Assembly: GCA_039809905.1 (NCBI GenBank)
Contig: JBDHVY010000001.1
Location: 60,001-92,000, forward strand
Reading direction: 5' to 3'
DNA length: 32,000 nucleotides
From: Candidatus Babelota bacterium
GTDB taxonomy: Bacteria > Babelota > Babeliae > Babelales > Vermiphilaceae
In this document: piece by piece, positions 4,847-26,044 of the stretch
How positions within the stretch are numbered: the stretch's first letter is position 1
How the letters are laid out: the number at the start of each line of letters is the position of its first letter
Position numbers and translations under genes: made by a program
Notes under the pieces: generated by a model
The model's database searches: none
What the model was told of the DNA's origin: nothing
What the model saw: the letters and a program-made list of their open reading frames with translations, nothing else

Positions 4847-6343
4847 TTACCAACCGAAAAACATTTTTATTTTATTCTTCACTCGTCGCCATATTGAATC
4901 ATTTTCCAAAGTTTTTTCACTCAAAACTCCAAATATTTTTTTTACATTTTTTTCGAGAAAAATATTAATCAATGGATTTTGCAATTCTGCTATCGTAGAA
5001 CAGCACGCAGCAGCCGGATCTCCTGATGCAGTAAGCATCCCAGCCCAGTATTCATTACCGGGATATGAATTACCATCCCACGCATAGCACGCAACAAGTA
5101 ATTTGCCTTTATTTCCACCATTTAATGTATCAGCAGGATTTCTTTTAGAAAAATGAATTGCCATTCTTTTTTTAATCTTTTCCCATGTTAATACATCGAT
5201 GGCACTTCTAGTCTGCTGCACATGTGCAGGAAACCAACTAAAATCAATATCACTAACGTTAAATAAATGACTATCACTGATGACATCCGCATATACGCTC
5301 AGCATATAATTTGCCTGTTTTTCATGTATTTGCCAAACACCCAGCCCAAGACCAACCACATGTACATATGCTCTTTTATTTTCTAGCTTAGCACGCTTAT
5401 TGGCATCCATTAAAAATGGTTTTACCACTAAACCAATACGCTTTTTGTATACCGATGTGTTCAAATAAAACCCATTCTTGAGCAAAAGATATTTTCCTGA
5501 ACGATCTGATTGCGCTTCAGCAAATGTTGGAAATTTTTCACCATATAAATTGGACCACAAAGCAAGAATCCCTTGATTTGTTGCTTTTAAACCATATCCT
5601 TTTTCTTGCGTATTCTGTTGGGGAGTTATTATCATCTGTTGCCATTCCATATAACCAGGCTTTTCAAAACGAGCACCTACTAATCCAACATAAATACCTT
5701 CTTCTTCATAAGAACCATCAATACCCACAACAGCTTGATTATTACGCGCACCATTATTGATAAAATATGTTGGAACAGAAACACCAATAAGAGCCGCTAC
5801 TGCCATTTCATCGTATGAAAGATAATCTTTAAGCACTAAAGGATTTTGTTCTTCTTCCATTCCAATTGTTTCAAAACCACCAAATCCAGATTGATTATGA
5901 GATCTCAAAAGATATTGGTCTTGCTCAGTCATAAACATTAATGGTCGCTTAATTAAAAGACGCATAATAAACTGGTCCAAAGACATATTTTTATACACAG
6001 CTTTTTCTTTTGATGTTCCATTATTCTTTTTATATTCTAAAAACTGTTCTATAAAAGGTTGTACTTTTGGATGTATCAATGGATACGTATTTTCTGCATG
6101 ATATGCTATACGATCTTTTTTTGTCTGATCATTACCTGCAATTTTAGCAATCCTATTATTTTGCGTAGGAAATTTTCCAATTTCATCATTAAACTTACAA
6201 GATTGATCTGCCAATATGCTAAACCGATCTTTGTCAGTCAATATTGATTTTTTGACGCTCTGGTATTTTGCATGCACAAAAGAAAAACACACACTGCTTA
6301 CTATAAGGAGCACAAGTGTTTTTTTTAAAAAAATTTTGTTCAT
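4847..6343 (-). CDS. Secreted hypothetical protein (498 aa)
   Basis: Long ORF with a signal peptide (MNKIFLKKTLVLLIVSSVCFSFVHA). Its ATG overlaps the tlyA stop (TAATG at 6341-6345), suggesting an operon. Conserved-looking motif ACYAWDGNSYPGNEYWAGMLTASGDPAAA, but I cannot name the family. Confidence 0.75.
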   Translation of the reverse strand: MNKIFLKKTLVLLIVSSVCFSFVHAKYQSVKKSILTDKDRFSILADQSCKFNDEIGKFPTQNNRIAKIAGNDQTKKDRIAYHAENTYPLIHPKVQPFIEQFLEYKKNNGTSKEKAVYKNMSLDQFIMRLLIKRPLMFMTEQDQYLLRSHNQSGFGGFETIGMEEEQNPLVLKDYLSYDEMAVAALIGVSVPTYFINNGARNNQAVVGIDGSYEEEGIYVGLVGARFEKPGYMEWQQMIITPQQNTQEKGYGLKATNQGILALWSNLYGEKFPTFAEAQSDRSGKYLLLKNGFYLNTSVYKKRIGLVVKPFLMDANKRAKLENKRAYVHVVGLGLGVWQIHEKQANYMLSVYADVISDSHLFNVSDIDFSWFPAHVQQTRSAIDVLTWEKIKKRMAIHFSKRNPADTLNGGNKGKLLVACYAWDGNSYPGNEYWAGMLTASGDPAAACCSTIAELQNPLINIFLEKNVKKIFGVLSEKTLENDSIWRRVKNKIKMFFGW

Positions 6344-10314: not shown

Positions 10315-12789
10315 ATGAAATTACTACGCGCTATCGCTTGCATTATATTCTTTTGCATCGTTCATGCCAGCAAAGCAGAATACCAATATATAACATTTCT
10401 CAAAGATGTATCTCTCTCAGATATTCCACTGGTTGGCGGAAAAAATGCCTCACTAGGACAAATGATTAATTCATTAACCTCTCAAGGCATTCGAGTTCCG
10501 AATGGATTTGCTATCACAGTTGATGGATATGCTCGTTACATTACATATAATAATTTAACTGAAAAGATAACTGATTTAACGAATCAGATTACTGATATAG
10601 ATGACTTAAAAAATCTCAAAATCATCAGCAGTGCAATTCGTTCTCTTATTGAAAATGGAATTATTCCTGATGATCTTGCAGATGAAATCACTTATGCCTA
10701 CCAGGAACTTTCCGATCAGTATAATGAAGCATATTGCGATGTAGCGGTACGCTCATCTGCAACGGCAGAAGATCTTCCTGATGCTTCTTTTGCAGGACAA
10801 CAAGATACTTATCTACACGTACAAGGAATTGATAATGTTCTTACGTATTACAAAAAATGCCTTGCATCATTATTTACCGATCGAGCAATTGCATATCGTG
10901 TAGAACAAAATTTTGATCAATCAGAAGTAGCACTTTCAGTTGGCATTCAAAAAATGATTCGCTCTGATCTTGCATGTTCAGGCGTTGCATTTTCACTTGA
11001 TACAGAAAGTGGATTTACTGATGCCATAATTATTAATGGATCATATGGTCTTGGTGAAGCAATAGTTCAAGGATCAGTTACTCCCGATGAATACATTGTA
11101 CATAAAACAACTCTTGAACAAGGATTTGCTCCGATCATCAAAAAACAACTGGGCGTAAAATCAACAAAAGTTATTTATAGCAATCGAAATAATAATCTTA
11201 TTGAAACAACTAATGTATCTGATGAAGATCAATTACACTATTGTCTTACCAATGATGAAATTCTAGAGCTCGCGCATATGGTTATGACAATTGAAAAACA
11301 TTATTCACAACAATACGCAAAACGCAATAAAACGTATACTGCTATGGATATCGAATGGGCAAAAGATGGCATCGATGGTAAATTATATATCGTGCAAGCA
11401 CGCCCAGAAACCGTACATACAGGAAAACAAACAAACATTCTTCAGCTCTATTCTTTATCCGAAAGTAATGGCACGCTTGCTGATTCTATTTTGGTTAAAG
11501 GAATCAGTGTTGGTCAACAAATTACCAATGGAATAGCACGAATTATTAACTCGGTAGAAGATATCGATACTATCAATTCAACAGATATTATTATCACTGA
11601 TATGACAAATCCCGATTGGGTTCCTGCAATGAAACAAGCTGCTGGAATCATTACCAATCAAGGCGGTAGAACGTGTCATGCAGCAATTGTCAGCAGAGAA
11701 CTTGGCATTCCCGCAATTGTTGGCACACAAAATGCTACAGAAAAAATAGTTTCAGGACAAGCGATAACACTTGATTGCAGCAATGGAACAATCGGATATG
11801 TATATGATGGCATTATTCCTTTTGATGTAATAAACGTGCAATTAGATACTCTTGCTACACCACCTGTGCCAATAATGGTTAATATTGCTGATCCAGATAG
11901 CGCATTTAAAATATCAATGTTGCCTACAGCAGGAATTGGTTTAGTACGCCTTGAATTTATTATCACTAATGCACTCAAAATACATCCGATGGCTCTTATC
12001 TATCCTGAAATTATCACGGATCCACATATTACCGAAAAAATTGAACAAACAACTGCTGCATACACCAATAAAACAGATTTTTTTGTTGAACAACTTGCCT
12101 GTTCTGTTGGCATGATGGCAGCAGCATTTTATCCACGACCTATCATTGTTCGTTTTTCTGATTTTAAAAGTAACGAATATTACAATCTCATTGGTGGATC
12201 ATATTTTGAACCAACAGAAGAAAATCCTATGATTGGTTTTCGTGGCGCATCGCGCTATTACCATGAACGTTATAAAGATGCATTTGCTCTTGAATGCCAA
12301 GCAATGAAAATTGTTCGTGAAAAAATGGGTCTGACAAATGTAAAACTCATGATACCATTTGTTCGTACACTCACTGAAGCAGGAAATGTTCTGGATGAAA
12401 TGCACATTAATGGATTGGAACGCGGCATCAATGGATTAGAAGTTATTATGATGTGTGAACTGCCATCAAACGTTATGCTTATTGAAGAATTTAGTAATTA
12501 TTTTGATGGATTTTCTATTGGATCTAATGATCTGACACAAACCACTCTTGGCATTGATCGCGATTCTGCACTGATCAGCCATATCTTTGATGAACGGGAT
12601 CCGGCAGTAAAAAAAATGCTCACCAAAGCTATAAAAAAAGCTAATGAAATTGGAACATATATTGGTATTTGTGGACAAGCCCCATCAGATTTTCCTGAAC
12701 TTGCACAATATCTGATAGATATTGGCATAAACTCTGTTTCTCTCACACCTGATACAGTTATTCCGTTCTTAATGCGCTACGCGCAATAA
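10315..12789 (+). CDS. ppsA: Phosphoenolpyruvate synthase (pyruvate, water dikinase) with an unusual N-terminal signal-like extension
   Basis: 824 aa. VGGKNASLGQM ATP-grasp start. Phosphohistidine region GGRTCHAAIVSRELGIPAIVG. C-terminal PEP-utilising TIM barrel (GFSIGSNDLTQ). The first 21 aa, MKLLRAIACIIFFCIVHASKA, look like a Sec signal. Confidence 0.9.
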   Translation: MKLLRAIACIIFFCIVHASKAEYQYITFLKDVSLSDIPLVGGKNASLGQMINSLTSQGIRVPNGFAITVDGYARYITYNNLTEKITDLTNQITDIDDLKNLKIISSAIRSLIENGIIPDDLADEITYAYQELSDQYNEAYCDVAVRSSATAEDLPDASFAGQQDTYLHVQGIDNVLTYYKKCLASLFTDRAIAYRVEQNFDQSEVALSVGIQKMIRSDLACSGVAFSLDTESGFTDAIIINGSYGLGEAIVQGSVTPDEYIVHKTTLEQGFAPIIKKQLGVKSTKVIYSNRNNNLIETTNVSDEDQLHYCLTNDEILELAHMVMTIEKHYSQQYAKRNKTYTAMDIEWAKDGIDGKLYIVQARPETVHTGKQTNILQLYSLSESNGTLADSILVKGISVGQQITNGIARIINSVEDIDTINSTDIIITDMTNPDWVPAMKQAAGIITNQGGRTCHAAIVSRELGIPAIVGTQNATEKIVSGQAITLDCSNGTIGYVYDGIIPFDVINVQLDTLATPPVPIMVNIADPDSAFKISMLPTAGIGLVRLEFIITNALKIHPMALIYPEIITDPHITEKIEQTTAAYTNKTDFFVEQLACSVGMMAAAFYPRPIIVRFSDFKSNEYYNLIGGSYFEPTEENPMIGFRGASRYYHERYKDAFALECQAMKIVREKMGLTNVKLMIPFVRTLTEAGNVLDEMHINGLERGINGLEVIMMCELPSNVMLIEEFSNYFDGFSIGSNDLTQTTLGIDRDSALISHIFDERDPAVKKMLTKAIKKANEIGTYIGICGQAPSDFPELAQYLIDIGINSVSLTPDTVIPFLMRYAQ

Positions 12790-19018: not shown

Positions 19019-19200
19019 ATGTCAGCACAAAGACCAACCTTAGACGATATCGTTGCACTCTGCAAAAGACGTGGTTTTGTATTCCAGTCATCAGAAATTT
19101 ATGGCGGCCTGAATGGGGTATATGATTTTGGTCCATTGAGCACCTTGCTTAAAAATAATATTAGAAACGCATGGTCAAAATCTATCAAATCTCCCGATAA
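19019..19200 (+). pseudogene. glyQS 5' fragment (codons 1-60), truncated at a rearrangement junction
   Basis: [60 protein letters not shown] is identical to the intact GlyRS N-terminus apart from one Ser/Gly difference. Homology stops abruptly at 19200. Confidence 0.9.
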
Positions 19201-19557: not shown

Positions 19558-20055
19558 ATGTCAATGAATTTTATAATAATAAAAAATCTAAATAATTTTC
19601 AGCAAATAATAGAAAGCCCTATTTTTATAGGTTGCGATAAAGCTCGTCTAAATATGGAAATATCGACGAATATGTGGGCTATTTCAATAGCTCCTAAAAC
19701 ACTTAAAAATATATCTTTAGATTATTTATCTGAATTTGTAAAAAATCTTTTACACAAAAAGCTTCAACAAATATCACAATTAGCTATTTCTTGTCCTGTA
19801 ATTTTTTATATGTGGTTCGATGAAATGCCTTCTCAATTAAGATTTAATATAATATCGGAATCGCATAATCAACTCCCCTTTGCTTGTAAATTAAACATTA
19901 TAAATTTACCTGAGAAAATTTTAATAAATTTTTTAAAATCTCAACATAATCAAATAATTCCTTGGACCGATTTAATAGAAATCACAGATGATTCTGATGA
20001 AGTAGAAGAAATTCCTTTTATATTGGATGTATTTGTTATCCAATTAAACAAATGA
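19558..20055 (+). CDS. Putative immunity-type protein, family immA (copy 1)
   Basis: 165 aa with a strong RBS. Paralogue of 23813-24298 (shared NMW.IS, F.VK.L, IFY.WFD....LRFNII.E, LPF.CKL, acidic tail). Followed directly by a toxin-tail remnant. Confidence 0.7.
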   Translation: MSMNFIIIKNLNNFQQIIESPIFIGCDKARLNMEISTNMWAISIAPKTLKNISLDYLSEFVKNLLHKKLQQISQLAISCPVIFYMWFDEMPSQLRFNIISESHNQLPFACKLNIINLPEKILINFLKSQHNQIIPWTDLIEITDDSDEVEEIPFILDVFVIQLNK

Positions 20056-20059
20056 ATAG

Positions 20060-20131
20060 CGCATGGATTCTATAGATTCAAAAACTTTAAAACTTTATAA
20101 ACCTGCTGTTACTACAAGAATAGTAAAATAA
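20060..20131 (+). pseudogene. Orphan remnant of the toxin C-terminal tail
   Basis: Translates as (M)DSIDSKTLKLYKPAVTTRIVK*. Compare HIGSIDPKTLRIYKGPKHAKLKI* in the intact toxin and GSIDPKTLKFYKPAVAAKRIAK* at 24446-24514. Followed by taataattttaggagtcatc, the leader that precedes immB2 at 24513-24532. Confidence 0.7.
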
Positions 20132-20256: not shown

Positions 20257-21480
20257 ATGATACAATTACACCGGTTTATTTTCTGCTTAACTTTCATCAG
20301 TAATACCTTGCATACACAAACAGCAGAGGAACAATATAATTCCCACAACCAACAAATCCCTGCGCTTAAAAAGCTTAGTCCCTCTAAAGAATCTAAAGAT
20401 CTTTTAAAACGGCTCGGTAAAGAACTTGCCATGTGTAAAGATATTCTAAGCTCTAATTTTTCTAATCTTTCTGAGCTTGATAACAATAATATTGCTGAAC
20501 CTGATTCTTCTGCATTTCATAATGATGACATTGCCGAATTAGAAATGGTATTTGAATCATCTCCCGAAGAAGCACAACACATTGTAAATTATCTCAAAAA
20601 TAATAATGCTTATAAAAAAAAACGCGGATATATTTTTTTTGTGGGAAAACCAGGAGTAGGAAAAACAACTATGGCAAAAGCTATAGCATATAAAATGTCA
20701 CTAGAAGGATGGGATTGCCGACATTTCACAAGCAGTGATTTTATAAAAAGCAATCGCAACCAAACAGCTACCTATCTGAAACAAAAATTGGAATCGGCTA
20801 CACTCTCTCCTAGACCAATTATAGTAATTATAGATGAAATTAATGGTTTATTAGAAAACACACATAGTGAAAATTATGATACAGATTCCACCTCAAAAGC
20901 ACTATGGAGTTTTCTTGATGAGCAGAAAGATAATCATCAATTCTTTTTAATTGGTACAGCCAATGATATTTCGAAACTACCGCAGGCTTTGCAAAATAGA
21001 ATATTGGGAAGAATAATTGAATTTCCCGAAATAACAAGCATGGAATCTAAAATTAAATCTTTACGTAGAAATCTAATAGAAGCAGGGTTGAAATTCGATA
21101 AAGAAATAACGGATGCCTTTTTAGAAAGTGAACTCAAAAAAATATCCGATCACTCTAATCGTAGCATAGATCGGCTTGCAGAAAGCATATATTTCAATCA
21201 TCAAGCAAATACTTCTCTGATGATTACAAAAGAAACTATTACAAAAAACATTCTGAAACGTATTCAAGAAGAGAAAACAATGGGTTATAACGTTAAAAAA
21301 GAAACCGATGCTGAAAGACAAGAACGGCACCACCAGGAAAATAAATCAGCACAAAACTCATATATTCTTAAACAGGCTGGTGTTCAAACTGCTGTTCATG
21401 TTGGTCTTACCTACGTCCTACCAGTAGTAATATCGGTCATTACCGGGGGAAAAACCCCTCCTACCCCGCCTATTCTATAA
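20257..21480 (+). CDS. AAA+ ATPase (classical AAA clade) with hydrophobic N-terminus and C-terminal TM helix plus Pro-rich tail
   Basis: Walker A FFVGKPGVGKTTMAKA. Walker B PIIVIIDEINGL. Sensor-1 LIGTAN. Arg-finger region ALQNRILGR. N-terminus MIQLHRFIFCLTFISNTLHT. C-terminus AVHVGLTYVLPVVISVITGGKTPPTPPIL. Confidence 0.85.
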   Translation: MIQLHRFIFCLTFISNTLHTQTAEEQYNSHNQQIPALKKLSPSKESKDLLKRLGKELAMCKDILSSNFSNLSELDNNNIAEPDSSAFHNDDIAELEMVFESSPEEAQHIVNYLKNNNAYKKKRGYIFFVGKPGVGKTTMAKAIAYKMSLEGWDCRHFTSSDFIKSNRNQTATYLKQKLESATLSPRPIIVIIDEINGLLENTHSENYDTDSTSKALWSFLDEQKDNHQFFLIGTANDISKLPQALQNRILGRIIEFPEITSMESKIKSLRRNLIEAGLKFDKEITDAFLESELKKISDHSNRSIDRLAESIYFNHQANTSLMITKETITKNILKRIQEEKTMGYNVKKETDAERQERHHQENKSAQNSYILKQAGVQTAVHVGLTYVLPVVISVITGGKTPPTPPIL

Positions 21481-21540: not shown

Positions 21541-22905
21541 ATGAAACGTTTTTTCCTATTGTATTACCTCGCTTTATCAGTTATGCTTTGGCCTTCTGAT
21601 ATTACTTGTAATCCTTCCAAGCTTACAATAGCCGTTGCTCCGGTTACATCTTTGGGGTCTTTAATAATAATCAATCCCATTACTGCAATACTTGGTGCTG
21701 CAACACAACTTGCAACAATAGCCCAAAATGCACTTCAAAAATATATGGAGCAAAATTCGCCTCTAAGCCACAATATACCATTACCACCAGAGGTTATCCT
21801 GGCAGAACGCTCTTATTATGAACAAAGAATTGTTGCATTAGAAGCTCTTAAACAAGAATTTCTTTCTCTTAAAAAAGATTTAGAAGCTTTTAGGTTTCTT
21901 AAGGGTACTAATCAAACAACATTCACTTACGAGTTTTTAAACCACATTAATCAATTAGATCCTCATCACAAAGATCCATTACTGCACATTTCTCGTCAAC
22001 GCGAAAAGTATCTAACAGATAATCAGAAAGAAAATTTAAGACTTTTACGAGAAACTCAATTACAACGTATTGGACAAGAAATTACTTCTCTTCAAACTAG
22101 TCTTGTTGTTCATATTTATGTCCTTATGGAACAAGTATCTGTTGCTTACGATGAATACCACGTATTTCAAGAAAAAATAGAGGGAGATATTAAGCTATGG
22201 AACAAGAATATCAATAATATCACTTATAATACAGCACTGCAATTATACCGAACAGAGCTACAGCAAGCATATTTACTCAACAGTCTCAAACAAAAAGTTG
22301 ATGAACTGCAAATGATAGCTCATTACTATCGCAATAATGTGAATATCTCTTGCATAGAAAAAAGCACAAATATCATTCCTATTTTAGAAACACTTGACCC
22401 ATTAATAACTGACTTAAACCTATTCATTCCAAATCAAAAAACTGTTAACGATAATAACATTCGCATAACAGAACAGCATTTTATTGCCCAGGGCATTAAT
22501 ATACAGCAGATAAGAAATGATATTAAAAAGAATCTTGAACAAAATAGAAATAATCGCGCTAAACAAACTATTGCTCAAGCCAAAAACAAATTAGAAAATA
22601 TTGTTGTTGCCGGTGGACCAAGTAAAGACCCTAAAGATAATGATAGAAACAAAGAACGAATATTTAATGCAATTTCTAAAACAGAATTCTTTAAAAAAGT
22701 AGAAGAGCATTATGAATACTATAAAGACAATATCTATAAACGAAAAAGAGGAACTGATGGAATTGAAGATGCTGAATATCTTAAATGGGATAAGTTACAT
22801 AACGATGTTGAAGCATATGGAAAAAATAAATGTCACATTGGTTCTATAGATCCAAAAACGCTCCGTATATATAAGGGACCAAAACACGCTAAACTAAAAA
22901 TATGA
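21541..22905 (+). CDS. Secreted coiled-coil toxin with a colicin E3-like 16S rRNA endonuclease (cytotoxic) C-terminal domain
   Basis: Signal peptide MKRFFLLYYLALSVMLW, then a long Q/E/L-rich helical middle. The last 55 aa (22738-22902) are KRKRGTDGIEDAEYLKWDKLHNDVEAYGKNKCHIGSIDPKTLRIYKGPKHAKLKI. The colicin E3 tip, as I recall it, is KRKRWTGDKGRKIYEWDSQHGELEGYRASDGQHLGSFDPKTGNQLKGPDPKRNIKKYL. Same W-D-x-x-H-x-x-x-E spacing (D417, H420, E424). Confidence 0.85.
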   Translation: MKRFFLLYYLALSVMLWPSDITCNPSKLTIAVAPVTSLGSLIIINPITAILGAATQLATIAQNALQKYMEQNSPLSHNIPLPPEVILAERSYYEQRIVALEALKQEFLSLKKDLEAFRFLKGTNQTTFTYEFLNHINQLDPHHKDPLLHISRQREKYLTDNQKENLRLLRETQLQRIGQEITSLQTSLVVHIYVLMEQVSVAYDEYHVFQEKIEGDIKLWNKNINNITYNTALQLYRTELQQAYLLNSLKQKVDELQMIAHYYRNNVNISCIEKSTNIIPILETLDPLITDLNLFIPNQKTVNDNNIRITEQHFIAQGINIQQIRNDIKKNLEQNRNNRAKQTIAQAKNKLENIVVAGGPSKDPKDNDRNKERIFNAISKTEFFKKVEEHYEYYKDNIYKRKRGTDGIEDAEYLKWDKLHNDVEAYGKNKCHIGSIDPKTLRIYKGPKHAKLKI

Positions 22906-22929: not shown

Positions 22930-23220
22930 ATGTTCATTTGTTGTAATGCCTTAAAAGAAACAGTAGAAGATCTAAGAGTATACATTAGTTATGACGACAG
23001 ATATAGAGAATATTATATAGAGACAACAGATCCTGTTGTAATTTATGTAATCAAGTATTGTCCATGGTGCTCTAAAAAATTACCCGAAAATTTAACTGAT
23101 GAATGGTTCAAAGCTCTTGAAACAGAATATGGCCTGGATGATCCCGATAGCAAGGAACAACAAAATCTAGTTCCTAATGAATTTAAAACTGATGAATGGT
23201 GGAAAAAGCGTGGTTATTGA
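22930..23220 (+). CDS. Putative cognate immunity protein, family immB (copy 1): small Cys-rich (CC...CPWC) protein
   Basis: 96 aa, starting 24 nt after the toxin stop. Paralogues at 24536 and 26045. Conserved CC near the N-terminus, CPWC.KKLP, and a near-identical C-terminus DDPDSKEQQNL.PNEFKTDEWWKKRGY. Confidence 0.8.
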   Translation: MFICCNALKETVEDLRVYISYDDRYREYYIETTDPVVIYVIKYCPWCSKKLPENLTDEWFKALETEYGLDDPDSKEQQNLVPNEFKTDEWWKKRGY

Positions 23221-23736
23221 ATAATGAAATATTGCTGGCGAATAACAAAATATGATCCAGAAAAACGTAATTCTCAAGGATGGTTCCTTGAAGATACATG
23301 GATTTCTTATGGAGAGATTGGAGAGTCATATCAAGGAAAAATACTCACTTATGATGAGTATATACGAGTGGAAAACCTCTATATAAATGCAATAGTGGAA
23401 TTTATGAAATGCTTAGATATTTCACATCTACAAATTCAAGGATTAGAAAATCATGGTAGCGTAAATGAAGATCCATCTATTGACCAAGAAGAACGAGTAT
23501 TTGTTAATACATTGCAAGAAAATGATTTATTATCCTTAGAACAAATTAAAACGGCCTCAAAACTGATATTACGAAATTATTTTTGGTGTCAATTAATAAG
23601 CAAGCACAAAATGTTTGTCCACTTTGGTTATGATTATTATATGTATATAGGAAGTAGATCAGAATGCAAAGATACTCTACAAAAAATAAAAAATTCTGGA
23701 TTATTTGTTGAAGACTTTGAATCTCCTTATAGGTAA
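23140..23736. repeat. Cassette homology block, copy 1 (immB 3' end plus the whole of immC)
   Basis: High nucleotide identity by eye to 24752-25347. The last 83 bp (23654-23736 vs 25265-25347) differ at 1 position. The immB 5' halves upstream are strongly diverged. Confidence 0.8.
23224..23736 (+). CDS. Putative immunity/accessory protein, family immC (copy 1, intact)
   Basis: 170 aa. Start 4 nt after the immB1 stop (TGAATAATG). MKYCWRITKYDPEKRNSQGWFLEDTW... Paralogue at 24836. Confidence 0.75.
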   Translation: MKYCWRITKYDPEKRNSQGWFLEDTWISYGEIGESYQGKILTYDEYIRVENLYINAIVEFMKCLDISHLQIQGLENHGSVNEDPSIDQEERVFVNTLQENDLLSLEQIKTASKLILRNYFWCQLISKHKMFVHFGYDYYMYIGSRSECKDTLQKIKNSGLFVEDFESPYR

Positions 23737-23751
23737 GAAAAAGAATTAAAA

Positions 23752-23816
23752 AAATAATTTTTTATGAGTCATCAACTATGCATTCCTGTCAGTTAGAGGT
23801 AATTTTTATAACATGA
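23752..23816 (+). pseudogene. Remnant of an immB leader plus first codons (MHSCQLEVIFIT*)
   Basis: aaataatttttt-atgagtcatcaactatgcattcctgtcag matches the immB2 leader and start at 24510-24552 (aataattttaggagtcatcaactatgcattgctgtcaa). The ORF stops after 12 codons, overlapping the immA2 ATG. Confidence 0.6.
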
Positions 23817-24298
23817 ATATTATAGGCATATCTCATTTAGATCAGCTTGATTTTATTTTTAACGATCAATTGTATCTCTCAGGAAAACAAGAAGAAGAAA
23901 TCTATCATAATATGTGGTGCATTTCTCTAGAAAGAAATATTATAGAGAGTATTACTTTGGAGCAATTAAAATTTTTTGTAGATAAACTAATTAAAAACAG
24001 AGAACAGCAATTGAAAGGTATCTATTCTTCTAAAAATGCGATTTTTTATATATGGTTTGATAAACAAGCCTTACAATTAAGATTTAATATTATTACAGAG
24101 ATAACATTCTTGCCTTTTGGATGTAAACTTCAATTACTTACCGCTCCAGATTCTATTTTGACTAGTTTTATCTCTACTATCCGAGATATTGCTAATTATG
24201 GAGACCTTATTCAATTCAATGATGAACAAGATGTGCCAGATGAAGATGAAAACAAAGAACAATATGTTTTAAATGTTTTTGCTAAAAAATTAAATTAA
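23813..24298 (+). CDS. Putative immunity-type protein, family immA (copy 2)
   Basis: 161 aa, paralogue of 19558-20055. Followed in the same frame by an orphan toxin tip. Confidence 0.7.
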   Translation: MNIIGISHLDQLDFIFNDQLYLSGKQEEEIYHNMWCISLERNIIESITLEQLKFFVDKLIKNREQQLKGIYSSKNAIFYIWFDKQALQLRFNIITEITFLPFGCKLQLLTAPDSILTSFISTIRDIANYGDLIQFNDEQDVPDEDENKEQYVLNVFAKKLN

Positions 24299-24514
24299 AC
24301 ATTGATAGGATTTCCAATATCAGAATCACAACAAATATGCATCGGGATCAATGAGGGAAATACGAAAAATATATATGAATACACAACAGATAAATTACAT
24401 ATATTTGATGCGATTGAAGCATATGGCAAAAATAGGTGACATATGGGCTCGATAGATCCAAAAACTTTAAAATTTTATAAACCTGCTGTAGCTGCAAAAA
24501 GAATAGCAAAATAA
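24299..24514 (+). pseudogene. Orphan colicin-E3-like toxin tip with an internal stop
   Basis: My translation: TLIGFPISESQQICIGINEGNTKNIYEYTTDKLHIFDAIEAYGKNR*HMGSIDPKTLKFYKPAVAAKRIAK*. TGA at 24437-24439 sits where the intact toxin has Cys (TGT). No start codon or N-terminal region. Confidence 0.75.
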
Positions 24515-24535: not shown

Positions 24536-24832
24536 ATGCATTGCTGTCAATTAATGGCCGATTCTATCAATGATCAACGCATTCAAATTGGCTATGATCC
24601 AATAACTGGAGATTATTTTATACCTCTTCTTTATAAAGGAAAAACAACCGCATTACAATGTCTATATCTCTGCCCTTGGTGCGGTAAAAAATTACCCACT
24701 AGCCTCAACAATCTATGGTTCGAAATACTTGAAAAAGAATACAATCTCAATGATCCCGATAGTAAGGAACAACAAAATCTAATTCCTAATGAATTTAAAA
24801 CTGATGAATGGTGGAAAAAGCGTGGTTATTGA
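24536..24832 (+). CDS. Putative immunity protein, family immB (copy 2)
   Basis: 98 aa: MHCCQLMADS...CLYLCPWCGKKLP...DPDSKEQQNLIPNEFKTDEWWKKRGY. RBS AGGAG. Confidence 0.8.
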   Translation: MHCCQLMADSINDQRIQIGYDPITGDYFIPLLYKGKTTALQCLYLCPWCGKKLPTSLNNLWFEILEKEYNLNDPDSKEQQNLIPNEFKTDEWWKKRGY

Positions 24833-25347
24833 ATAATGAAATATTGCTGGCGAATAACAAAATATGATCCAAAAAAACGTAATTCCCAAGGATGGTTTCT
24901 TGAAGACACCTGGACCTCTTATTCAGATATTGGAGAGTCATATCAAGGTAAAAAAATTACTTATGATGAATATTCACAAGTGGAAAATCTCTATATAAAT
25001 GCAATAGTGGAATTTATGAAATGCTTAGATATTTCACACTTACAAGTTAAATACCTAGAGAACCATGGAAGTATAAATGAAGATCCATCGATTGAGAAGA
25101 CAGAAGTTATATTTGTTAATGCAATGAAAGAAAATGATTTGTTATCGTTGGAACAAGTTAGAATGGTATCAAGACTAATCTACGAGGATATTTTTGGTGT
25201 CAATTAATCAGCAAATATAAAATGTTCATTGATTTTGGTCATGACTATTATATGTTTATTGGTAGTAGATCAAAATGCAAAGATACTCTACAAAAAATAA
25301 AAAATTCTGGATTATTTGTTGAAGACTTTGAATCTCCTTATAGGTAA
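24752..25347. repeat. Cassette homology block, copy 2
   Basis: See 23140-23736. Confidence 0.8.
24836..25347 (+). pseudogene. immC copy 2, disrupted by a 1-nt deletion frameshift
   Basis: The ORF ends at 25207 (…RLIYEDIFGVN*). The next frame continues QLISKYKMFIDFGHDYYMFIGSRSKCKDTLQKIKNSGLFVEDFESPYR*, which matches the immC1 C-terminus. Comparing aaactgatattacga (copy 1) with agactaatctacga (copy 2) shows one base missing near 25178-25183. Confidence 0.75.
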
Positions 25348-25357
25348 ACTATTTTAA

Positions 25358-25945
25358 ATGAAAATATTGATAGTATTTCAAATTTCAGAATCACACCTAA
25401 TACACGTTGCAGTCACTCAGCAGGTGAAGACAAATATATATGGCTACAAAACACATGAATTGCATATATTTGATGAAATTGAAGCAAAATATATTCACAA
25501 CAACAAATCGATCATTTTAATTCGTGATAGTGCACAATATGTGATAGAAACATTTTGTAATTCTTTAGAAATGGCACTTAAGAATGAATTGATGTTAGAT
25601 CCATCCCTTGTTCCAGGAAAAATCGGATATTTTTTTAGTAAAGAAAAAGCTGATAATTTTGATGAAATAAAGGATGCGAAGAATATTTTTTCACAATATT
25701 GGGTATGGTCTTCTTTAGATAATGTACAAACATGGCTTTATAATGCAAATAATAAAATATATCTTGAAATAAGTCTCACTTATCCCTGGTTATTTTCAGA
25801 TCCAGAAGAAGGCGAAAATTATATTTCTTTCGATGAATACATGAGTAGCTATAAGCCCGTAGCTTTAATCGAATTGGAAAAATCACTTGTTTTGTCATGG
25901 ATAAATGAATGCCGTAGGCTGTTACAGAAAATGGAAACAGTTTAA
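25358..25945 (+). CDS. Chimeric ORF: N-terminal ~45 aa homologous to the toxin tip, fused to an unrelated ~150-aa domain ('immD')
   Basis: ILIVFQISESHLIHVAVTQQVKTNIYGYKTHELHIFDEIEAKY parallels the orphan tip at 24299 (LIGFPISESQQICIGINEGNTKNIYEYTTDKLHIFDAIEAYG). The remainder (…VWSSLDNVQTWLYNANNKIYLEISLTYPWLF…) has no counterpart elsewhere in the window. Confidence 0.55.
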   Translation: MKILIVFQISESHLIHVAVTQQVKTNIYGYKTHELHIFDEIEAKYIHNNKSIILIRDSAQYVIETFCNSLEMALKNELMLDPSLVPGKIGYFFSKEKADNFDEIKDAKNIFSQYWVWSSLDNVQTWLYNANNKIYLEISLTYPWLFSDPEEGENYISFDEYMSSYKPVALIELEKSLVLSWINECRRLLQKMETV

Positions 25946-25961
25946 TTAATAATATCCCAAT

Positions 25962-26044
25962 CACATTGGATCAATCAATGCTCAAACGTTAAAATTATAC
26001 AAGCCAGAAAACTTCCCGGAAAGTAACAAAGAAAGTAACAAAAA
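25962..26044 (+). pseudogene. Orphan toxin-tail remnant (the other half of the tip split by 'immD')
   Basis: Translates as HIGSINAQTLKLYKPENFPESNKESNKK, cf. HIGSIDPKTLRIYKGPKH. Different frame from 25358-25945. Runs into the immB3 start. Confidence 0.6.

Follow-up and report, generated by a model that had tools for sequence, protein, structure and literature searches.

A probable Sec-exported polymorphic toxin with a colicin E3-type RNase tip, and its hoarded immunity genes, in a Babeliales bacterium

The stretch of DNA analysed here (the window, 32,000 nucleotides) comprises positions 60,001 to 92,000 of contig JBDHVY010000001.1 from Candidatus Babelota bacterium assembly GCA_039809905.1. 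The contig is 1.23 Mb long. The window has a GC content of ~30–36% across most of its length, and its phosphoenolpyruvate (PEP) synthase is 83% identical to a "Candidatus Babeliales bacterium" protein, with all other named matches also falling in Babeliales/Dependentiae. We focus on the gene at 21541..22905 (+ strand), an ATG-initiated open reading frame (ORF) of 454 codons whose homologues carry the same trunk with different tips. We consider it probable that this gene belongs to a polymorphic-toxin family, one that has so far turned up only in Babeliales/Dependentiae, and that the product is a Sec-exported, antibacterial RNase of the colicin E3 type with a DUF6980 protein as its immunity partner. 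An earlier sequence-only reading had proposed a modular toxin that opens with a signal-like leader, continues through a long helical region and ends in an RNase tip of the colicin E3 type, and all of these parts exist, as judged from the ORF, hydropathy, AlphaFold2 modelling and Pfam family PF09000.

The first 27 residues (21541..21621, +; MKR, then FFLLYYLALSVMLW, then PSDITC|NPSK) resemble a signal peptide by hydropathy. At the N-terminus, MKRFFLLYYLALSVMLW, two basic residues precede a hydrophobic run ~14 residues long (mean Kyte-Doolittle hydropathy 1.6–2.1). Hydropathy places two hydrophobic regions in this part of the protein, at aa 3–19 and aa 28–61. The second hydrophobic stretch described earlier is thus present, and belongs to a conserved, marginally hydrophobic segment (aa 28–62; 21622..21726, +), delimited by hydropathy and alignment, which contains an Asn-Pro at its centre and a helix rich in small residues (NPITAILGAATQLATIAQNAL). 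Throughout the family the segment retains the core xNPhxAxxGAxxxLxxIAxxAxQxY. A helical trunk follows (aa 63–358; 21727..22614, +), a lineage-specific constant domain ending in AKNKLENIVVAG. AlphaFold2, run with 11 homologues, predicts five long helices over residues ~83–357 with predicted local distance difference test (pLDDT) values mostly between 70 and 90, and the composition is rich in L (12.6%), N (10.6%), I, Q and E, in agreement with the ~300-aa L/N/Q/E-rich helical region previously proposed. No Pfam or NCBIfam match was found for the trunk, the family profile matches only HINT/intein entries in the PDB, and a Foldseek search of the trunk model against the PDB returned only generic helical bundles (best E=0.06). 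A junction and linker (aa 359–371; 22615..22653, +; GPSKDPKDNDRNK) then lead to the RNase cassette (aa 372–454; 22654..22902, +). The linker had been called basic; counted by hand over aa 359–399, it is mixed-charge and Asn/Asp/Lys-rich with a net charge of ~+4, and hence not strongly basic.

By sequence, the tip is a true homologue of the colicin E3 RNase, and cleavage of 16S rRNA between A1493 and G1494 is predicted for it. An E3-like tip had been placed at 22738–22902, and residues 401–448 (nt 22741–22884) indeed match Pfam PF09000 ("Cytotoxic") at E=5.6e-5, with 23.8 bits against a cut-off of 22. When aa 365–454 were compared with all PDB sequences by phmmer, the top matches were colicin E3 chains only (4udm_B, 1e44_B; E=1.4e-4). 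Residues D417, H420 and E424 align with D55, H58 and E62 of the colicin E3 RNase domain (D510, H513 and E517 of the full protein), and H432 aligns with the histidine of QHLGS; across 12 related tips these positions show little or no variation. This second histidine is reported to be conserved throughout the fold (Zhang et al. 2012, PMC3482391). The AlphaFold2 model of the tip alone (pLDDT 81.6) contains one helix and six strands, and its top Foldseek match is colicin E3 (1jch_A). This match is weak (probability 0.91, E=0.03, TM score 0.43), and the fold evidence therefore supports rather than decides the E3 identity.

A protein search with the tip alone returned five sequences, and the E3 cassette also occurs on short HINT-only scaffolds (P0012–16; here P-numbers denote relative proteins and L-numbers the fetched loci of relatives). 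Two loci show further variation in this tip. At L003 (1554–2732) the E3 tip is shortened (...NKERKINSVTK*) and appears to be inactivated, and a DUF6980 gene still follows. At L008 (7181–12400), in a Dependentiae-like metagenome-assembled genome, there are two complete short toxins (leader, HINT, hydrophobic segment and E3 tip, with no trunk) and a 55-aa E3 fragment, each followed by DUF6980 and interleaved with AAA_14/DUF4143 ATPase genes.

A word-indexed search with the whole toxin found 16 relatives, and an exhaustive phmmer search with the constant part (aa 28–365) against 1.84 billion cluster representatives found 98 at E≤1e-3, of which 23 reached E≤1e-30. The sole taxonomic name attached to these relatives is Candidatus Babeliales. 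A typical member is ~600 aa long and consists of a leader, a ~130-aa HINT domain, the hydrophobic segment, the trunk, G(G/S)P with an Asn/Asp-rich linker, and a variable tip. At least six different tip types occur on the one shared trunk; those recognised by Pfam are Cytotoxic/E3 (PF09000), Ntox21, Ntox37 and EndoU_bacteria, and the others are unannotated. The closest relatives of the window toxin, at 78–81% identity, lie in L003 and L004.

Comparison with relatives carrying other tips locates the point at which the constant and variable parts meet. Protein conservation stops at AKNKLE.IVVAG(G/S)P, with the break after IVVAG at aa 358/359 (IVVAG|GP); G358 is invariant in 11 relatives, and P360 is nearly invariant in 27. 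The DNA tells the same story: window and L004, which share the trunk and differ in the tip, are 83–98% identical through the AAA ATPase gene and the trunk, and identity falls to ~50% at ~nt 22615 (codon 359). An unusually conserved "homology arm" at the end of the trunk was also considered and rejected, since the full-length profile is at 83–98% all along the AAA gene and trunk; the solid part of this profile is the break alone. The sequence-only reading had placed the recombination boundary at an (F/I)-x-I-S-(K/E)-(T/S) motif, by analogy with the VENN motif of CdiA. The homologue alignment refutes this, since no break coincides with the ISK/ISE motif: FNAISKTEFF occupies aa 375–384, 16 residues past the actual break, and is conserved only among E3-type tips, including those of the short, trunk-less P0012–16. 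In the tip model the motif falls in blocks with pLDDT 82–93, and its second half opens the N-terminal helix of the domain (aa 380–387). Restricted to E3 tips and inside the domain, FNAISKTEFF belongs to the RNase cassette rather than being a pretoxin motif common to all tips.

The same leader is found in three genomes: L003 and L004 share it with the window at the protein level once their ORFs are extended to the conserved ATG. Across the family, a crude signal-peptide test was passed by 57 of 68 complete members (49/59 HINT-bearing and 8/9 HINT-less). It was passed by 0/4 immunity proteins and by 4/7 other window proteins tested, and given the latter figure it separates only toxins from immunity proteins. 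Three relatives bear the Joint Genome Institute name "PilE", and a pilin-like N-terminus was therefore considered as a candidate and rejected. No pilin or N_methyl model matched the window protein, P0007, P0008 or P0027 at E≤1, or ten further relatives at E≤0.01; the resemblance to a PilE sequence is confined to 12 residues (LSAIAHKAYQAY versus LAAVALPAYQDY, E=0.27).

In 65 full-length relatives, a pretoxin-HINT/bacterial intein-like (BIL) domain lies between the leader and the trunk. The family HINT profile hits 2lwy, a bacterial intein-like domain, at E=1.8e-13, as well as Pfam PT-HINT (PF07591). The C-terminal His-Asn needed for cleavage by Asn cyclisation is present in 65/65, whereas position 1 is Cys in only 13 of the 57 scored and mostly L, A, G, I or V otherwise; the +1 residue is A, S, F or M. 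C-terminal cleavage by Asn cyclisation is known intein/BIL chemistry. Given the universal His-Asn and the position-1 nucleophile that is usually missing, it is the only cleavage that fits, which sets these domains apart from their BIL/pretoxin-HINT counterparts. Most relatives would thereby cleave themselves so that the hydrophobic helix becomes the new N-terminus; its NP-type motif lies a median of 19 residues downstream of the HINT His-Asn.

The window protein has lost this domain, and no HINT remnant was found anywhere in the window DNA; its leader joins the hydrophobic segment directly. The same arrangement is seen in the distant HINT-less members P0019, P0023, P0027, P0029, P0032, P0035 and P0074, in which clear signal peptides are fused straight to the same helix. 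The HINT-less form is therefore recurrent rather than a one-off; together with the substitution rates given below, this speaks for its being functional.

Several further observations concern the N-terminal part of relatives. The E3-tipped P0018 starts with the last 23 residues of a HINT domain (residues 1–23, MLYCLTVEGHIFCIAPHGLCIHN; E=2.5e-11 against the HINT profile), reflecting either a partial deletion or a truncated gene call. P0066 and P0077 (first ~230 aa) and P0068, P0072 and P0098 (first 220–430 aa) carry an extra 200–430 aa ahead of the HINT domain or the hydrophobic helix. Just upstream of a HINT-less toxin in L021 (4709–5424) and of a HINT-bearing one in L006 (9278–9819, − strand), on the strand opposite the toxin, lies a nucleotidyltransferase-type gene. 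Its two copies are 37% identical, and a second gene beside it gives a weak match between these loci (E=0.002). The shared neighbour hints at a common chromosomal site at which the HINT domain was lost in place.

Directly downstream of the toxin gene lies a candidate cognate immunity gene (22930..23220, +), which encodes a 96-aa DUF6980 protein (PF22400, E=1.7e-16). DUF6980 is unrelated by Pfam to Im3, the immunity protein of colicin E3. An E3 tip is followed by DUF6980 in the window, in L008 (three times), in L013 and in L015. In four loci, type C tips are paired with a 195-aa family, the genes often overlapping by 4 nt; type D tips with a 161/162-aa family; and Ntox21 tips with a 170-aa family. 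Two of these pairings (E3 with DUF6980, and type C with the 195-aa family) thus recur in several independent loci. As each tip type is followed by its own immunity family, DUF6980 is likely to be the E3 immunity protein here.

Beyond the first DUF6980 gene there are seven further immunity genes or fragments downstream, all on the + strand, and one distant paralogue upstream. The gene at 23224..23736 (170 aa) is an orphan of the Ntox21-tip type, 72% identical to the L009 gene that immediately follows that locus's Ntox21-tipped toxin, and that at 23813..24298 (161 aa) is an orphan of the type D kind, 54–55% identical to the gene overlapping the P0008 stop codon in L006/L007. A second DUF6980 gene (24536..24832, 98 aa; PF22400, E=7.7e-13) is followed by a disrupted second copy of the Ntox21-type gene (24836..25347), split into ORFs of 123 and 41 aa that are 76% and 88% identical to two parts of 23224–23736 (repeats D2/D3). 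Next comes a 195-aa orphan of the type C kind (25358..25945), 86% identical to the gene overlapping the P0003 stop in L004 and 53–55% identical to its L005 and L009 counterparts; this pairing recurs in L016 and L018. The third DUF6980 gene (26045..26365, 106 aa; PF22400, E=6.2e-14) is 89% identical to the DUF6980 of L003. The upstream paralogue (19558..20055, +, 165 aa) is one of the type D gene, 35–36% identical to 23813–24298 and to the immunity genes of L005/L006.

Interspersed with these genes are three 3' stumps of E3 tips, one upstream and two downstream of the toxin; no complete orphan tip was found in the island. Two were detected by tblastn as plain remnants: one at 20051..20125 (+; SIDSKTLKLYKPAVTTRIV; repeat D7), and one comprising the last ~15 codons at 25959..26003 (+; NHIGSINAQTLKLYK). 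The third is part of a chimera (24302..24511, +) in which ~40 codons from the 5' end of a 195-aa immunity gene run into the final ~30 codons of an E3 tip, which include an in-frame stop. Its first part is 75% identical to the N-terminus of the L004 195-aa protein, and the tip part was identified by tblastn (repeats D5/D6/D7). At the junction, ~24414–24421, ...LHIFDAIEA is joined to ...EAYGKNR*HMGSIDPKTLKFYK within ~8 shared nt (...EA...), and the chimera is a product of illegitimate recombination via microhomology. The E3-tip 3' end explains why the 24302 copy had seemed E3-like. The strings GFPISESQQI (from 24302) and VFQISESHLI (from 25358), offered earlier as the starts of orphan tips, are present as described; both are, however, N-termini of the 195-aa immunity family. 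Orphan immunity genes for tips that this genome does not encode, and stumps of displaced E3 tips, make up the downstream array, which holds no orphan toxins.

The whole ~7.5-kb toxin/immunity block is bracketed by a 182-nt direct repeat. The right copy (26496..26677, +) is the start of an intact class II aminoacyl-tRNA (glycyl-tRNA) synthetase gene (26496–27818). The left copy (19019..19200, +), identical at 181/182 positions, is the 5' end of the same gene and lies in a truncated 75-aa ORF. This arrangement suggests that the block was acquired as a unit, and it looks as though the block had inserted near the start of the glycyl-tRNA synthetase gene and duplicated its target; neither an integrase nor a transposase is visible inside the island. 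A scan of the sequence for promoter and terminator consensus sites found them to be no more numerous than in shuffled sequence, and a role in anti-phage defence was considered and rejected, PADLOC giving no match for the toxin or immunity genes.

Sixty nucleotides upstream of the toxin is a gene for a classical-clade AAA ATPase of 407 aa (20257..21480, +; PF00004, E=6.8e-21). The protein has a Walker A motif (GKPGVGKT), a hydrophobic N-terminus and a C-terminal hydrophobic segment, and its nearest PDB relatives are Cdc48 and the membrane-helix extractase Msp1/ATAD1 (E~1e-8). We considered whether it is an obligatory partner of the toxin. It lies upstream of the toxin only in the close relatives L003 and L004 (~90% identical) and is not upstream in five more distant loci, L005, L006, L009, L021 and L025, which include HINT-less ones. 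An obligatory partnership is hence unsupported, and a link between ATPase and toxin is unproven. Two other window genes have signal-like N-termini. The PEP synthase (pyruvate, water dikinase; 10315–12789) has a signal-peptide-like start, MKLLRAIACIIFFCIVHASKA, and Babeliales homologues of the same ~824-aa length; a Sec leader on this central-metabolism enzyme would be odd. The product of the gene at 4847–6343 (− strand) strongly matches the MavL-like ADP-ribosylhydrolases (PF16062, E=2.4e-122), a family that takes its name from a Legionella effector.

The class to which the toxin corresponds most closely is already established. Polymorphic toxins exported by Sec and the type II secretion system (T2SS) comprise a signal peptide, an optional HINT domain and a lineage-specific N-terminal domain (Zhang et al. 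2012, Table 1, PMC3482391). Class examples include MAFB-N, Microscilla-N and APD1/2, some of them from amoeba symbionts (section 37, PMC3482391), and Tox-ColE3 is listed among polymorphic-toxin tips (PMC3482391). Like Neisseria MafB (MAFB-N/DUF1020), Microscilla-N and Amoebophilus APD1/APD2, the window family combines a signal-peptide-like leader with a constant domain confined to one lineage and variable C-terminal cassettes. It shares with them a cognate immunity gene directly downstream, downstream arrays of spare cassettes or immunity genes, an optional HINT domain as releasing peptidase, and occurrence in amoeba-associated bacteria. It differs from them in that the constant domain is unrelated (no Pfam match, including DUF1020) and starts with a conserved hydrophobic helix, and in that the HINT domain of the long relatives lies at the far N-terminus, before the trunk, rather than beside the tip. 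The window locus also has no MafA-like lipoprotein gene, has a membrane AAA ATPase gene upstream, as in its closest relatives only, and holds spare modules solely in the form of immunity genes and 3' tip stumps.

Two other systems are instructive. With colicin E3/cloacin DF13 and Im3, the window locus shares a homologous RNase domain in which the catalytic residues are identical, a long helical middle and an immunity gene that immediately follows the toxin. Unlike colicin E3, the window toxin has a Sec-type leader and lacks a translocation (T) domain, homology to the BtuB-binding receptor (R) domain and a lysis gene. Its immunity protein is the Cys-rich DUF6980 rather than Im3, it resides in a chromosomal island rather than on a plasmid, and its tip is exchangeable. 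The earlier statement that colicin machinery is missing thus holds: Pfam, PDB profile and Foldseek searches revealed no T or R domain, no lysis gene and no Im3-type immunity gene, with no lysis-type gene in the island and no Pfam/NCBIfam match outside the tip. With contact-dependent growth inhibition (CDI) systems it has in common polymorphic C-terminal nuclease tips that are swapped at a defined junction, along with immunity genes and orphan modules. The CdiA-CT of Enterobacter cloacae ECL (PDB 4ntq) was assigned to the Ntox21 family (Zhang et al. 2012, PMC3482391), and Ntox21 is also among the tips on the window-family trunk; 4ntq_A is itself among the weak fold matches of the tip model (rank 8, E=1.8). 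In contrast to CDI toxins, the window toxin has no two-partner secretion (TPS) domain, no filamentous haemagglutinin repeats and no VENN motif, and no CdiB-like gene was found in the window; the family's junction motif is instead (V/A)(A/S)G(G/S)P, followed by an Asn/Asp-rich linker. On each feature that could be tested, the locus matches the Sec/T2SS polymorphic-toxin class, and the toxin is a lineage-specific form of this known weapon type rather than a new toxin class.

How such a toxin would act can be outlined as follows. The precursor would be exported by Sec. In the window protein, signal peptidase would generate nearly the same mature N-terminus that HINT cleavage yields in relatives, and the mature protein would then leave the cell, possibly via the T2SS, whose components belong to the core genes of this phylum (TM6; PMC4776705). 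Attachment to, and entry into, a neighbouring related bacterium would fall to the trunk and hydrophobic helix. Once inside, the tip would cut 16S rRNA at the decoding centre, an attack that a matching DUF6980 protein would block. Related strains may be competing in this way, for instance when they infect the same protist cell together, and the stock of orphan immunity genes points the same way. The function is most likely competition between related bacteria, with the delivery route being one that we infer.

Several points weigh against an exported, antibacterial toxin. The equivalent of colicin E3 R90 is Lys in the window tip. The signal had been described as cleavable-looking, and its basic residues and hydrophobic run are indeed there; the cleavage site, I-T-C|N, is compatible with the −3/−1 rule and plausible, yet non-canonical. 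No secretion genes lie within the window. The trunk is without any sequence or structural relative that would indicate receptor binding or translocation, and the segment at aa 28–62 could be a membrane anchor that keeps trunk and tip in the cytoplasm. A crude Hessa-scale sum of +2 to +6 kcal/mol, itself a weak estimate, weakly suggests that this segment is no strong stop-transfer anchor. Finally, characterised Dependentiae live inside protists, hence a host target is conceivable.

This last point leads to the strongest alternative, which we nonetheless regard as unlikely: that the protein is an effector secreted into the protist, where the hydrophobic hairpin and trunk insert into a host membrane in the manner of chlamydial Inc proteins or self-translocating toxins. 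The RNase would then cut the small-subunit rRNA of host cytosol or organelles, with DUF6980 serving only for self-protection. The organism is a Babeliales bacterium, and the neighbourhood includes genes associated with interaction with eukaryotes (those for the MavL-like ADP-ribosylhydrolase and for ankyrin-repeat proteins). The decoding-centre target of colicin E3 is universally conserved, which also fits a host target. Moreover, Zhang et al. 2012 (PMC3482391) describe endosymbiont effectors in which toxin-like tips are preceded by a signal peptide and an N-domain specific to the lineage, APD1/2. The immunity array argues the other way. Genes conferring immunity to at least three tip types that are not encoded here, along with three copies of DUF6980, make sense only under exposure to the toxins of other bacteria, and this hoarding is our main argument for a bacterial rather than a host target. 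The same argument has been made for other polymorphic toxin loci (PMC3482391). Serial tip replacement that leaves 3' stumps is likewise the pattern of inter-bacterial polymorphic toxins rather than of parallel effectors, and every tip recognised by Pfam belongs to a family described as a bacterial toxin nuclease or RNase.

Could the gene instead be a decaying relic, an N-terminally deleted HINT-bearing toxin that is no longer exported or used and whose signal peptide is an accident of the deletion? Most relatives (the 65 full-length ones) have the HINT domain that the window copy lacks, the neighbouring relative in L003 has a truncated E3 tip, and the island contains pseudogenised immunity copies. 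The leader also shares LLYYL with the last HINT strand, and MAFFT aligned LLYYL...PSD..CN under the last HINT strands. This similarity is not significant: in shuffle tests the score was equalled in 28/2000 cases at best and typically in ~5%, and the HINT hidden Markov model gave −1.7 bits, below many shuffles. We therefore rejected the leader as a HINT remnant. Against decay more generally, the 454-codon ORF is intact with its catalytic residues kept, the leader is retained in three genomes, and in the distant HINT-less members a textbook signal peptide leads straight into the hydrophobic helix. The ratio of nonsynonymous to synonymous substitution rates (dN/dS), computed for the window gene against L003/L004, is 0.35–0.41 over the constant part and 0.31–0.32 over the leader, indicating that the gene is kept by selection. 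We consider a relic very unlikely.

Least probable is the model of the sequence-only reading, a new colicin-like three-domain class to which the hallmarks of polymorphic toxins do not apply and in which the ISK/ISE motif marks a VENN-like boundary: the three-part layout, the E3 tip, the adjacent immunity gene and the lack of a Pfam match in the N-terminal 370 residues speak for it, but the boundary is at aa 358/359 and not aa 375, the motif is confined to E3-type tips and lies within the RNase domain, both comparison strings belong to immunity proteins, and the hallmarks do apply, with PT-HINT in 65 relatives, tips that vary on one trunk and a Sec/T2SS class already on record.

Within the reading that we favour, of an exported polymorphic toxin, the constant part may have a more specific role. 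A possible but doubtful proposal is that it forms a previously unrecognised self-delivery module, in which the marginally hydrophobic helix and the five-helix trunk insert into the target membrane and carry the RNase across. The helix may be exposed either by signal peptidase or by Asn cyclisation of the N-terminal intein-like domain, and the upstream Msp1/Cdc48-like membrane AAA ATPase might extract the hydrophobic N-terminus or hand it over. If this were true, a bacterium with only Sec and T2SS, and without type III, IV, V or VI secretion systems, would have a diffusible, colicin-independent means of injecting nucleases into competitors or into its protist host.

What is new here is the trunk domain, the hydrophobic N-terminus of the mature toxin, the position of the HINT domain ahead of the trunk, the fact that a plain signal peptide has repeatedly taken the place of that domain, and the phylum in which all of this occurs. 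New too is a functional context for DUF6980 and for three unnamed immunity families. Full-text searches of one literature library found no paper linking Dependentiae with a polymorphic toxin and none mentioning DUF6980. For a phylum with no export machinery known beyond Sec and T2SS, the trunk offers a candidate new domain for delivering or anchoring toxins. DUF6980 gains a likely function, immunity to E3-type RNases, and the three unannotated families gain likely immunity roles. Dependentiae/Babeliales are reduced parasites of protists, and the locus shows a classic arms-race system among them. A private constant domain, at least six swappable nuclease tips and hoarded immunity genes imply frequent exchange of toxins between related strains, presumably in shared hosts.

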